Below are positions 7,680-24,447 of a stretch of 64,000 nt of DNA, one piece after another. The translations under genes were made by a program, and so were the position numbers. A model generated the notes under the pieces. It saw only the letters and a program-made list of their open reading frames with translations, did no database searches and was not told where the DNA came from. This DNA comes from Armatimonadota bacterium (GTDB taxonomy: Bacteria > Armatimonadota > SYMT01), in assembly GCA_046292385.1 (NCBI GenBank), contig JBKBRF010000008.1, positions 1 to 64,000 on the forward strand, written 5' to 3'. The stretch's first letter is position 1; every line of letters begins with the position of its first letter.

Positions 7680-7762
7680 AAGCGTCTCGCCCGGCACTAC
7701 GTTTTGGTGCAAGGGAGCTACCCCTCGCTACGCAATACGGAATACGCAATACGGATCACGCA

Positions 7763-8707
7763 TTACGGCACAGGGCCCTCCAACGCCTGCGCCACGGCCT
7801 GCTGCAGGGCGGTGGGGCTGGGCGGCGGGACCAGCAGGCCGCGGACACTCGGGTGATCCCGGTAGCGCTCCGCTTCTGCCGCCTCCGCCAGCAGGAGCAC
7901 CGGCAGCTCCGGGGCGAGGTCTTGCACTTCGTCGAGCGCCTCCCGGCAGTGCAGCCGTCCGCCGAGATGGCAGTCGAGGAGCAGGAGGTCGTACGGCTCT
8001 CGCTCCAGCAGCTCCAGCGCTTCGTCCGCGCTCCAGACCAGCCGCGGCGACATGCCGGCCTCGGTGAGCGCCTCGGCCAGGAGCTGGCGAAGCTGCGACT
8101 CGTCCTCCGCCACCAGTACTCGCAGGCGAGCCGAGGCGGGATGCGAGGCGGCGTGCGGCTCGTGATGGAACCAGGTCTTTCCTGCGTGCACGGCTCGGAG
8201 CGCCGGAACCAGCTCCTCGGTCAGGCGGTGCTTGTCCACCACCCCCCAGGCGTCGTTGGCCCGGGCTTCCGCCGCCAGCTCTCGAGAGGCGTAGCCGGTG
8301 CAGAACAGCACCCTGGGGGCGGGGGATTGGTCCGATCGAGTGCCCCGCAGGGAGCGGAGCAGGTGCATCCCGTCCGCGTCTTCCAGGTAGTAGTCGAGCA
8401 GGATCAGGTCCACCTCTAGCTGTACCAGGGCGGTCTGCGCGTCCCAGACGGAGGCGACCGTTCCCACCACCTCGATGTCCCGCTCCAGGGCCAGCCGCTG
8501 CTGCAGGAACCCCTGCATCATCGGCTCGTCCTCCACGAGCAGCACCCGCATTCGGCGTGTGGAGCCGGCGCTCGGGTCGGCGTCGGTCGCCTCGTCCGCG
8601 TCCTCGTCGCCCTCGTCAGCAGAAACGGTGCCGACGGGAGAGGAGAGCGACGCCGGCGCGCTCCCCGGGCGCGGCTCTTCCGACGCGTCGCCGGAGGCGA
8701 GCGGCAT
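7763..8707 (-). CDS. tandem receiver-domain (REC-REC) response regulator
   Basis: Two REC domains: RVLLVEDE...LILLDYYL...DG and RVLVAEDE...LLLLDCHL; no output domain; start may be 8551. Confidence 0.8.
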   Translation of the reverse strand: MPLASGDASEEPRPGSAPASLSSPVGTVSADEGDEDADEATDADPSAGSTRRMRVLLVEDEPMMQGFLQQRLALERDIEVVGTVASVWDAQTALVQLEVDLILLDYYLEDADGMHLLRSLRGTRSDQSPAPRVLFCTGYASRELAAEARANDAWGVVDKHRLTEELVPALRAVHAGKTWFHHEPHAASHPASARLRVLVAEDESQLRQLLAEALTEAGMSPRLVWSADEALELLEREPYDLLLLDCHLGGRLHCREALDEVQDLAPELPVLLLAEAAEAERYRDHPSVRGLLVPPPSPTALQQAVAQALEGPVP

Positions 8708-21493: not shown

Positions 21494-22036
21494 TCACCGC
21501 TCCTTCTTTCGCTCGCCGGGCGGCACCACCGCGGTGACTCCCAGGGTCCCGTGGCTGCCCTCTTCTTCTCCCGGCTTCCAGAGCCCCTCCAGCTCCACCC
21601 CCTGGCCGACCTGCTTCTCCAGTTGGGAGAGCAGCTCAGCGTGCCCCTCGGCGGCGGTGAGCGGCAGCTCCACGGGGTGGCGCATCTTGTCGAGGCGGAG
21701 CACCAGGCGATCCGCTTCGCGCGCCAGCGTTCCGGTTACCCGGAGCTCGGTCTGCTCGGGAATCGGGGTGTAGCCCGCGTCCCGGATCGTCTCCCACATG
21801 CGGCGCGGGTCGGGCCACTGGCCCGGCTTCACCTTCACCTCCATGACGGGAGGGCGCAGGTACAGCTTTGCTTGAGCAACGCCATCCAGGCGCTGCAGCC
21901 CCTTGCGGAGCGTAATGCCTCAAGTGGCTCACGTGGCGCCCTTGAGGCCCAGCTTCACCTGCTTCAGGTCGGCGAAGGCGGGGCCGGCGCAGAGCAGCGC
22001 GGCGAGCGCCGGTACGACGAATAGACGTCCGTTCAT
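21494..22036 (-). CDS. exported heavy-metal-associated (HMA, MerP/CopZ-like) domain protein with two in-frame UGA codons: putative UxxU selenoprotein (180 aa)
   Basis: GGGAGA RBS and ATG 22036; reads MNGRLFVVPALAALLCAGPAFA-DLKQVKLGLKGAT*AT*GITLRKGLQRLDGVAQAKLY...WETIRDAGYTP, in frame with the 21494-21844 ORF; the two TGA (21931-21929, 21922-21920) sit exactly at the Cys positions of the HMA GMTCxxC motif. Confidence 0.85.
21889..21919 (-). promoter_or_regulatory. candidate bacterial SECIS hairpin
   Basis: Directly 3' of the second UGA: GGCAUUAC-GCUCC-GCAA-GGGGC-UGCAGCGCC; apical loop begins with G, 22 nt after UGA1 and 13 nt after UGA2. Confidence 0.55.
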
Positions 22037-22128
22037 CAGAGTCTCCCAGTCGAGATGCATCGGAGCGCGCACCCTGCGGGTACGCGCGAGCGGGACGACA
22101 GGCGGGCCGAGGTACTCGGCCGTTCTCG

Positions 22129-22778: not shown

Positions 22779-23447
22779 ATGCAGACTGTCTCACGCCTCG
22801 CCCTGATCTCGTCCCTGCTCCTGACCGCGCTGGCGGCGCACGCGGCCGCTCCTGCTCCGAGCGCCTCCGACGTGCTGGCACGCGTGGAGCGCCGGCTCGC
22901 CGCGGTGGAGGACTACAGCTACGTGCTGGAGTCGGAAGTCCGCGGGCCGAAGAAGCGGAGCCACGGCACCTACCAGATCTGGGTCCGCAAGCCGAATCTC
23001 TTCCGCCTCAAGGTGCAGCGCGGGCAGAACGAGGGCAGCGAGATCGCGGTCACGCCCCGCGGTACCGTCGATGCCCGGCCTGGCGGTCTGCTGAAGCACC
23101 TGGTGACGAAGTCGATGGACAAGCACGACCCCCGCCTCCGCTCGCCGCGCGGGGCGTACGCGTGGGAATCGACGTTCAGCCACTTCTGCTCCCGGCTCCG
23201 GCAGAGCCTCGGGCGCGCCGGGAGCGCTTCCACCGCGCCCGCTTCCGGCTCGAAGCAGCTCGCCGTCACCCTGAGCTACCGGCACCCGCAGAGCGGTCGC
23301 GCGATGCGCGAGACCTGGACGGTCGACAGCGGCGACTGGAAGCTCACTGGCTTCGATGTCTGGGAAGACGGCGTGCAGGTCGAAAAGTGCCGCCTCAAGG
23401 ACTGCCGCCTCAACCTCGGGCTGAAAGAGAAGTTCTTCGACCTGTAG
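22779..23447 (+). CDS. exported LolA/LppX-fold-like protein (outer-membrane lipoprotein-sorting family)
   Basis: GGGAGG RBS; signal peptide; DYSY, RKPNLFRL, and C-terminal N-x-GL-x-x-x-x-F typical of LolA-like folds. Confidence 0.6.
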   Translation: MQTVSRLALISSLLLTALAAHAAAPAPSASDVLARVERRLAAVEDYSYVLESEVRGPKKRSHGTYQIWVRKPNLFRLKVQRGQNEGSEIAVTPRGTVDARPGGLLKHLVTKSMDKHDPRLRSPRGAYAWESTFSHFCSRLRQSLGRAGSASTAPASGSKQLAVTLSYRHPQSGRAMRETWTVDSGDWKLTGFDVWEDGVQVEKCRLKDCRLNLGLKEKFFDL

Positions 23448-23664
23448 CCTGCCCCCTCGAGCGCGTCGGAGAGCCGCGGCCACCACCCCGCCTTTGGATC
23501 GAGGCAGTATTCCTCGCTCCGACACCCGGCCCAGAGCAGGATAGTCCCGGCGCCGGTCCGCGATTCCACCCATCAAATCCCCCGCCGGCGGGAACCATGG
23601 AAGTGAGGCGCGCACCGGGCACGGGAGCAGATTAGCGGTGCGCGCGGGCTCGAAGGAGGCTTCC

Positions 23665-24447
23665 GTGATCGAGATCAGGAGCCGGGAAACGCAGGCGGTG
23701 CTGCTGCGGGTGGAGGCGGATACCCTTCGCGGCGCCCAACTGGAGGGAGCCAACCTGCGCGACGCCTATCTCGTGGGCGCGGACCTGCGGGACGCCAACC
23801 TCCGGTGCGCCTGTCTCCGCTCCGCGCTGCTGCGCGGCGCCAATCTGCACGGCGCAGACCTGCGCGGCGCGGACCTGCGCGAAGCGCAGCTCGAGGGAGC
23901 GGTGCTGGACGGCGCGCACCTGGACGCCGGCCTGTTGGAAGGGGCGGACCTGGACCACGCCGGCCTCCACTCCGCCGTGCTCGCGCGCGCCGATCTCCGC
24001 GGAGCGATGCTGGAGGCGGCCGACCTCGAGGAGGCGGACCTCAGCGGCGCCGACCTGCGCGAGGCAGACCTGCGCGGAGCAGACCTGGCCGGCGCCAACC
24101 TGCGGGATGCCGACCTGCGCGGCGCGTTTCTGCGGGAAGCGGATCTGCGCACGGCGGTGCTGAGCGGCGCGGTCCTCCACTGCGCGGCGCTCGATGCGGC
24201 AGAGCTAGAGGGCGCCGTCCTCCGCGCCGCAGACCTGGACCACGCGCACCTGCGGGGCGCCGACCTGACCCACGCGGATCTCTCCCAGGCCGATCTCAGG
24301 TGTGCAGACCTCACGGGCGCGACACTCAGGGAGGCCGAGCTGGAAGGCGCGGACCTGCGCGGCGCCTCGCTGGAAGCGGCTGATCTCCGCGATGCGGACG
24401 TGGAGCCGGACCAGCTCAGCGCCGCGACGCCGGAGAATGGCCGCTGA
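23665..24447 (+). CDS. pentapeptide repeat protein
   Basis: Long run of A(D/N)LxG/ADLxx pentapeptides; AAGGAGG RBS before GTG. Confidence 0.92.
   Translation: MIEIRSRETQAVLLRVEADTLRGAQLEGANLRDAYLVGADLRDANLRCACLRSALLRGANLHGADLRGADLREAQLEGAVLDGAHLDAGLLEGADLDHAGLHSAVLARADLRGAMLEAADLEEADLSGADLREADLRGADLAGANLRDADLRGAFLREADLRTAVLSGAVLHCAALDAAELEGAVLRAADLDHAHLRGADLTHADLSQADLRCADLTGATLREAELEGADLRGASLEAADLRDADVEPDQLSAATPENGR

Follow-up and report, generated by a model that had tools for sequence, protein, structure and literature searches.

A UxxU protein with two predicted selenocysteines (Sec, U) is listed in two reviews, as far as their accessible text goes (PMC13188914, PMC9312934), and this kind of protein is already curated in NCBIfam as NF041115 'UxxU_metal_bind', a single domain of 74 positions and of HMA type in which both ligand Cys residues are replaced by Sec. 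The accessible part of a further study describes group 4 [NiFeSe] hydrogenase large subunits in which all Sec/Cys combinations (UXXU, CXXU and UXXC) occur in a metal-binding CxxC motif (PMC13582414). Here we analyse a gene on the minus strand at 21494..22036 of a stretch of 64,000 nucleotides (nt), hereafter the window, which comprises positions 1 to 64,000 of the forward strand of contig JBKBRF010000008.1 from the Armatimonadota bacterium assembly GCA_046292385.1. A preliminary description, made from the letters of the window alone, had read this gene as an exported HMA protein with UGA at both of its ligand codons and had proposed that these are recoded as Sec. Our analysis confirms the observation: this is very likely a genuine double-UGA gene, and comparison with its homologues makes it likely that both UGA positions encode Sec.

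Like NF041115, the window protein has an HMA-type domain with predicted Sec in place of both ligand Cys. Unlike that single-domain model, it is 180 residues long and carries a signal peptide and a C-terminal OB domain, and its family also uses CxxU, UxxC and CxxC. NF041115 was the best NCBIfam match of the window protein, with 34 bits against an equivalog cut-off of 95, and no true NF041115 member was found in the window's genome, where the best match to that model (63.9 bits) is an ATPase domain. The protein shares with MerP and CopZ/Atx1 the fold and the loop position of the two ligands, and with MerP also its export, but it differs from both in having predicted Sec for Cys, in the extra OB domain and in the lack of a mer or cop operon around the gene; its scores (34.3 bits for MerP, TIGR02052, cut-off 92.55; 24 bits for CopZ, cut-off 91) fall short of membership in either family. 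As in the hydrogenases, going by the available text of that report, the UGAs are 9 nt apart, a conserved stem-loop follows them and the same phylum is among the carriers, although the hydrogenase is an unrelated cytoplasmic Ni-Fe enzyme and a single selenocysteine insertion sequence (SECIS) was proposed for its UXXU form, compared with two adjacent conserved hairpins here (PMC13582414).

In a literature thin on subscription journals, we found no paper describing an exported HMA-OB selenoprotein or the outer-membrane barrel encoded beside it, and a preprint on eight selenoprotein families does not mention HMA or CopZ. The preliminary description did not recognise an exported UxxU HMA protein with an extra beta-rich domain as characterised; this overstated the novelty, as UxxU HMA proteins are already curated and reviewed. 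The window protein is a member of an uncurated family with a new two-domain architecture, within an already predicted UxxU kind.

The double-UGA reading frame and its family

Direct reading of the minus strand shows a Shine-Dalgarno-like GGGAGA (22042..22047) separated by a 5-nt spacer from the ATG at 22036-22034. The frame opened there runs for 180 codons to the TGA at 21496-21494, provided that the TGAs of codons 36 (21929..21931) and 39 (21920..21922) are read through, and its product is MNGRLFVVPALAALLCAGPAFA|DLKQVKLGLKGAT-U-AT-U-GITLRKGLQRLDGV..., with the ligand loop GAT-UGA-AT-UGA-G falling within the HMA domain at the first and second metal-ligand positions. Under translation table 11, only a 116-residue open reading frame (ORF) is obtained (21494-21844), which is the 3' portion of the selenoprotein frame. 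Each element of the preliminary reading, namely the ribosome-binding site, the start codon, the signal peptide and the in-frame TGA-GCC-ACT-TGA ahead of the 116-residue ORF, was thus recovered, and the frame has the same length and architecture as the orthologues that we read. A scan for promoters and terminators found no element for the selenoprotein operon.

The letters at 21920-21931 were compared with contigs from two other studies, one of soil and one of roots. Both contigs that span these positions (record 8 of run X3, covering 21778-22095, and record 14 of run X4, covering 21709-22103) are identical to the window there, with 0 differences; run X1, a possible source sample, was left out of the comparison, and run X2 has no cover over the UGAs. 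As independent contigs carry identical letters, the two TGAs are not an assembly error.

Copies of the gene were sought with a protein query in 61 related genomes and with a profile in 401 genomes of the phylum. The latter gave generic HMA matches in 124 genomes at E <=1e-8, mostly ATPase domains, and among the 401 genomes 19 full-length two-domain copies from 18 genomes were read codon by codon, a count that leaves out two partial matches with one TGA each (G017:C40 and G300:C23). In what follows, G000 denotes the genome of the window, and other G, L and C numbers denote the genomes of relatives, loci and contigs. In all 19 copies a hydrophobic N-terminus is followed by an HMA block and by a C-terminal block some 90 residues long, and their protein identity to the window protein is 18-54%. 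The ligand motif is UxxU in eight of them (G000, G005, G002, G003, G004b, G062, G343, G236), CxxU in six (G004a, G018, G007, G087, G368, G375), UxxC in four (G041, G293, G016, G009) and CxxC in one (G225). Hence TGA occupies one or both ligand columns in 18/19 copies, far beyond chance, with TGA in 12 and TGC or TGT in 7 at the first, and TGA in 14 and TGT or TGC in 5 at the second. Upstream of the first UGA, the six closest copies agree without exception at D23, L29, G30, K32, G33 and T35. A metagenome scan added eight loci, seven UxxU and one CxxC, with two UxxU pairs identical over the part read; a scan of genome contigs returned the five loci already known and none further.

A family profile was also run exhaustively against 1.84 billion representative proteins, and 32 of the best 150 matches listed were read. 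Thirteen are full-length CxxC forms of 174-206 residues, and twelve, of about 250 residues, have a second HMA domain. Five start just past the motif and are truncated remnants of Sec forms; one has no Cys; and one, the public predicted protein P0086, reads CATW at the motif, where TGA was probably translated as Trp by a gene caller working under another code. The entry for the window gene itself is a 112-residue piece (P0154), and a search for homologous proteins yielded only truncated pieces. This bears out the expectation that standard gene callers would miss the gene.

Alternation of Sec and Cys at homologous columns is the classical mark of a selenoprotein. Here, Cys homologues exist for the first position (CxxU), for the second (UxxC) and for both (G225, the metagenomic locus L083 and the 13 library proteins), so that all the states looked for on the basis of the preliminary description are present; moreover, the in-frame UGA is conserved among orthologues, with coding conservation on both sides of it. 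A tree of the family (32 rows) had little resolution, with 18/29 inner branches open. The best tree needs 10 changes of ligand state and the well-supported branches force far fewer, and we draw no claim from it on the number or order of Sec/Cys switches.

The genome of the window encodes the complete machinery for Sec insertion that the preliminary description had named as a check. selA (578 bits) and selD (362 bits, itself with one TGA and hence Sec-containing) are on contig C11, together with tRNA-Sec (66.6 bits; anticodon tca according to ARAGORN), and selB (367 bits) is on C16, all four above their curated cut-offs. Otherwise TGA is a normal stop: it terminates 30 of the 61 ORFs of at least 350 residues in the window, where it is the commonest stop, and it also ends the selenoprotein gene. 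On C11, tRNA-Sec, the Sec-containing selD and selA lie side by side (locus L108, G000:C11:87434-90122 and 92690-92820), and the intergenic DNA of this locus contains GCAGGTT-like repeats in runs as well as a long, perfectly paired hairpin, one of which is miscalled by ARAGORN as a 97-nt tRNA-Cys.

Further genes of this genome carry in-frame TGAs. Exactly one is present in 11 of its 25 Redoxin (PF08534) matches, and a second HMA gene, lipoprotein-like, has two (locus L103, G000:C16:37704-37916, minus strand). The motif of the latter, ...NAKGMT-U-PAG-U-PPKVEKAL..., has three residues between the candidate Sec positions, and the ORF directly upstream of it encodes a similar domain without Cys. 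Given this second two-TGA gene and the TGA-bearing redoxins, the selenoproteome of the organism appears to be large, with an unusually rich complement of Sec-containing redoxins.

The RNA stretch downstream of the UGA codons

The preliminary description noted that bacteria insert Sec by means of a hairpin immediately 3' of the UGA, and the comparison revealed two conserved hairpins there, with frozen synonymous sites. The first, H1 (21898..21911, minus strand; GCUCC-GCAA-GGGGC), starts 17 nt past UGA1 and 8 nt past UGA2, and is a SECIS candidate on the basis of its pairing, its energies and the codon use within it. The second, H2 (21876..21896, minus strand; GCAGCGCC-UGGAU-GGCGUUGC), starts 23 nt past UGA2, was obtained as an RNAalifold consensus and is a SECIS candidate with G at loop position 2. 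In the available text of the hydrogenase study, the bacterial SECIS consensus has G at loop position 1 or 2 (PMC13582414).

Synonymous sites were compared among the 18 Sec-form genes that carry UGA2. Across the hairpin stretch, codon choice is nearly fixed, with CTC for L43 in 17/18 genes, AAG for K45 in 17/17, GGG for G46 in 17/17, CGC for R49 in 18/18, CTG for L50 in 18/18 and GGC for G52 in 15/18, and equally conserved Gly, Lys, Pro and Leu columns outside the stretch use 2-5 codons each. The mean fraction of the major codon is 0.88 in the eight conserved columns of codons 43-53, compared with 0.53 in 38 columns elsewhere (Mann-Whitney p = 8e-5, a value overstated by the kinship of the sequences).

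The six inner pairs of H2 are kept in 13-14 of 14 sequences, and pair 38-54 shows compensatory swaps (AU in eight, CG in three, GC in two). Overall 83.7% of cells pair, against 33-47% with the partners slid, and 0/500 shuffles reach the covariation score, a result to be taken with the caution that related sequences may score in this way without a structure. H2 has an energy of -8.6 kcal/mol or lower in 17/18 genes with UGA2, the exception being G002 at -6.4, and of -0.4 to -6.5 kcal/mol in six genes without UGA2. L083, a CxxC gene among these six, encodes the same YSLDKGLRRLDGV but uses CGG CTC instead of CGC CTG, which breaks H2. The loop of H2 starts with U-G in 18/18 genes with UGA2. Hairpins at the position of H1 (-8.4 kcal/mol or better) occur in 21/22 UGA-bearing genes, including UxxC forms with G-first triloops, and are present in the CxxC gene L083 and not in the CxxC gene G225. 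The register of H1 varies, being CCCUC-AAGC-GAGGG in G004b and AGCCUC-GAUAA-GGGGCU in the G018 group. Against Rfam, the region produced chance matches only (E up to 10) and no SECIS family, and the fold of the single 86-nt sequence is no better than that of its shuffles (z = -0.89), so that the signal is a comparative one.

The codon comparison shows an RNA-level constraint on the 45 nt that follow the UGAs, which are predicted to form the two hairpins. A stem-loop with G in its apical loop shortly 3' of the UGA is what a bacterial selenoprotein gene would carry, and we regard these elements as putative SECIS. It is possible either that H1 serves UGA1 and H2 serves UGA2, as tandem SECIS elements, or that one element serves both.

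Protein fold and neighbouring genes

The N-terminal 22 residues (21971..22036, minus strand) were judged by eye to be a signal peptide with a cleavage-type end AFA|D, and have a low predicted local distance difference test (pLDDT) score in the structure model; orthologues have hydrophobic N-termini throughout, ending xRA|DVK. The AlphaFold2 model, built from the 19-row alignment, has a pLDDT of 89.6 and a predicted template-modelling score (pTM) of 0.82. Residues 23-97 (21746..21970, minus strand) form a ferredoxin-like beta-alpha-beta-beta-alpha-beta HMA domain, with strands at 23-32, 53-60, 63-69 and from 90 onward and helices at 40-48 and 77-86, and the ligands at 36 and 39 sit in the beta1-alpha1 loop before helix 1. 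Foldseek matched this domain to CopZ (6ff2, template-modelling (TM) score 0.89; 2qif, 0.86) and to MerP (1osd, 0.79), and VIA-align matched it to 1fvq (Z 8.6, root-mean-square deviation (rmsd) 1.6, 72 residues aligned). Pfam HMA (PF00403) matches 19/19 family members at E <=0.1, the best at 2.4e-15, and the family profile matches single HMA domains in the Protein Data Bank (PDB), from CopZ, MerP and ATPase metal-binding domains, at 1e-9 to 1e-14. The loop of one family subgroup reads GMDUAVC, which resembles the GMDCxxC motif of Zn/Cd/Pb ATPase domains, with loops such as that of ZntA.

In the model, the last HMA strand (residues 90-107) continues into the second domain (residues 98-180; 21497..21745, minus strand), whose elements follow the order beta1-beta2-beta3-alpha-beta4-beta5. 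Folded alone, the C-terminal 89 residues gave a pLDDT of 86.8, with strands at 5-16, 19-24, 31-37, 55-63 and 73-80 and a helix at 42-49, that is, a five-stranded barrel with a helix between strands 3 and 4, as in an OB fold. VIA-align listed 50 matches, every one a small beta-barrel domain and the majority bearing an OB-fold name, with Z values of 6.4-8.2 that are middling by VIA-align's own note; the best is 3koj (Z 8.2, rmsd 2.7, 74 residues aligned), and the OB-type matches include SSB, PriB, MCM, RPA, tRNA-synthetase N-domains and SilF. We assign the OB fold because the match list is unanimous and the topology fits, and not because of the Z values. The models thus allow us to describe the window protein with confidence as a two-domain HMA and OB architecture, in line with the exported HMA protein with an extra beta-rich C-terminal domain of the preliminary description. 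DUF5818 (PF19135) gave sub-threshold matches to Cys-form relatives only (P0128, E 1e-4; P0074, 0.0055; P0016, 0.04), and none among the 19 family members; two structural matches in the ESM Atlas serve as leads only.

CusF and SilF of the CusCBA route offer a likeness, as small periplasmic beta-barrel domains from which a soft metal is handed to an envelope transporter. The alignment of SilF (8bwv) with the OB domain (Z 6.8, rmsd 3.0, 71 residues) is tied with those of many unrelated OB folds, and, unlike CusF and SilF, the OB domain lacks conserved Met, His and Trp ligands, the putative metal site being in the HMA domain.

The ATG of the next gene, P0002 (20602..21492, minus strand), lies 1 nt past the selenoprotein stop. 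It encodes an exported protein of 296 residues ending ...AFETFF, assigned as an outer-membrane beta-barrel by structural likeness to PF13557: the ESM Atlas groups it with PF13557 (COG4313) outer-membrane channels at a feature score of 0.98, and its Atlas model has a TM score of 0.86 over 278 residues to a cluster in which 77% of members bear PF13557. P0002 itself gave no Pfam match at E up to 1, and the barrel profile no sequence match in the PDB. According to the available text on COG4313/PF13557 channels such as Pput2725, known members are tied to the uptake of hydrophobic compounds and not to metals (PMC4493636); the subfamily described here is distinguished from them by its mature N-terminus HEPLWGE, invariant, together with H18, in 10 sequences. 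The barrel, searched for by tblastn, adjoins the selenoprotein gene in 13/19 loci, with a 48-residue fragment in a fourteenth. Gene order is variable: the barrel gene follows the selenoprotein gene in G000 and G005 and precedes it in the other loci. Paralogues of the barrel within the window's genome are weak only. An ESM Atlas cluster of 332-residue proteins, 27% of which bear PF13557, aligns to the OB part (TM 0.64 by query) in a low-confidence model, which hints that an OB-like domain may be fused to the barrel in some forms. Some relatives have a second small outer-membrane-type protein, ending ...NIGF, near the pair, and none is near the window's locus.

Upstream lies P0003 (22129..22605, minus strand), which from its sequence encodes an exported Cys-rich protein and possibly belongs to the same operon. 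It belongs to no known Pfam or NCBIfam family, and relatives of it stand beside the selenoprotein/barrel pair in G003, G005, G087, G343 and G368 (loci L087, L097, L089, L095 and L091). W28, C30, G33, C36, C56 and C89 are invariant in this family (W-x-C-x-x-G-x-x-C and further Cys), as is a C-terminal RAPP. A gene for a TlpA/Redoxin-type periplasmic reductase is near the pair in 7/13 extended loci of relatives; in G003 and G018 the reductase carries a fused YHS domain; an eighth extended locus (G005) has a separate YHS protein only. The YHS-TlpA fusions or the separate YHS protein beside the pair are found at L097:5490-6248, L090:10492-11211, and L087:7311-7694 and 7707-8252. Divergent from the cluster in the window are an exported 222-residue protein without a family match (22779-23447, plus strand) and a pentapeptide-repeat protein (23638-24447, plus strand; Pfam E 4e-69).

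Decoding and function of the window protein

Taken as a whole, the evidence is probably best explained by a full-length, exported selenoprotein of 180 residues that acts as a diselenolate carrier of soft metals and works with the barrel. Recoding as Sec is supported by the alternation of Sec and Cys, the complete machinery and the conserved hairpins with their frozen synonymous sites, and these same lines favour it, as the preliminary description had argued, over two nonsense mutations. A role as metal carrier together with the barrel is plausible, and the label 'metallochaperone' is an inference.

That the gene is dead, with two nonsense mutations, misassembled, or read in an organism that uses TGA as a sense codon throughout would fit with table 11 yielding only the 116-residue ORF and with the truncated piece in public protein sets. 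We consider this extremely improbable. The gene is not broken, because TGA and Cys alternate at the ligand columns (TGA in 18/19 copies at 18-54% identity), conservation spans the UGAs and extends upstream of the supposed stops, the Sec machinery is present, and TGA is otherwise the commonest stop, that of this gene included; the homologues have Cys at these columns, and not Trp or Gly, and the contigs of other studies are identical. Pseudogene, assembly error and alternative code are thus refuted by the comparison, the contigs and the use of stop codons. A different form of recoding, in which a SelB-dependent tRNA-ReC (selC*) reads one or both UGAs as Cys and the product is CxxC or mixed, is quite unlikely. 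In the accessible text of the hydrogenase report, genes resembling tRNA-ReC are present in 5/5 Armatimonadota genomes with UXXU hydrogenases, where either UGA may then be Cys (PMC13582414). One genome of the window's family carries the label Armatimonadota, and ARAGORN calls the 97-nt 'tRNA-Cys (gca)' 2.6 kb from selA. This call, however, overlaps both the stop codon of an ORF and the ribosome site and ATG of the ORF after it. Its acceptor stem is mismatched, its discriminator is C, no Rfam tRNA model matches it with E as high as 1, and it folds into a single long hairpin. The other odd call, on C77, is an 83-nt 'SeC' with poor arms. The tRNA-Sec model found one canonical tRNA-Sec each in G000 and five other UxxU genomes, and its lower matches, when run through ARAGORN with several of the lowest left out, were tRNA-Ser, tRNA-Leu and other standard tRNAs. 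No tRNA-ReC was found in the window's genome by ARAGORN and the tRNA-Sec model, a dedicated tRNAscan-SE search with the criteria of PMC13582414 not having been made. ARAGORN also reports two adjacent 'tRNA-???' with four-letter anticodons (ctct and cgaa) at G000:C5:199142-199303, which may be artefacts.

The protein could also be a true di-Sec protein whose U/C pair does redox chemistry, as a selenol/diselenide oxidoreductase supplied by reductases of the TlpA type, rather than a metal carrier. The TlpA/Redoxin genes beside the pair in relatives and the richness of the genome in Sec redoxins are in keeping with this, as is the statement, in the available text of reviews, that most known bacterial selenoproteins are redox proteins. 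Nevertheless, we think it unlikely, as the fold and the loop are of the metal-binding HMA type and not of the thioredoxin fold, the GMDUAVC subgroup resembles the motif of Zn/Cd/Pb ATPase domains, and the YHS domains fused to TlpA genes point to metal handling.

Several observations weigh against a Sec-containing metal carrier that works with the barrel. The hairpin windows were picked after the hairpins had been seen, in related sequences, which inflates the statistics. CxxU genes and one CxxC gene retain H1, and the H1 loop has no G in three UxxU genes. The distance from the UGA to a bacterial SECIS ranges from 16 to 37 nt, and H2 sits outside this range, 41 nt from UGA1. Taken alone, the window protein scores 20.1 bits with Pfam HMA, below the cut-off of 24.8, and its OB domain has no conserved Cys, His or Met. 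By tblastn with the barrel query used, no barrel gene came up next to G225, the genomic CxxC copy, or next to any of the four UxxC copies; no TlpA or YHS gene is near the locus in G000; and no mer or cop operon or other metal-specific context was seen in the window.

If the gene does encode such a carrier, SelB with Sec-tRNA would bind the H1/H2 hairpins and decode both UGAs as Sec, H2 having G at loop position 2, a hallmark of bacterial SECIS elements, and H1 lying at the usual distance from UGA1. The protein would be exported by the Sec export pathway, and its HMA domain could then grip a soft metal ion between the two selenolates. Cu(I) would be the most likely ion, because of the CopZ-like fold and the company of YHS and TlpA genes in relatives, with Hg(II) and Ag(I) as possible alternatives. 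The rigidly attached OB domain may dock the protein to a partner, for which the adjacent outer-membrane barrel is the best candidate, and the invariant N-terminal His of the barrel might accept the metal or donate it. Many relatives have a TlpA-like reductase of the periplasm, in some cases with a fused YHS domain, that could keep the U/C pair reduced. More tentatively, and with considerable doubt, each ligand might be tuned between S and Se independently, with H1 serving UGA1 and H2 serving UGA2, the protein being the periplasmic arm of a hitherto undescribed selenolate metal relay to the N-terminal His site of a dedicated barrel.

The family is truncated in public protein sets and reaches no curated model above its cut-off, and has therefore been missed by annotation, a gap that a family model built from the present alignment would mend. 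The locus is also a compact case of the bacterial decoding of two closely spaced UGAs. Compared with thiolates, selenolates hold soft metals more tightly and do so at lower pH, and for this reason the UxxU, CxxU, UxxC and CxxC series of a single putative exported carrier would be a natural system for asking what Se adds to metal handling.

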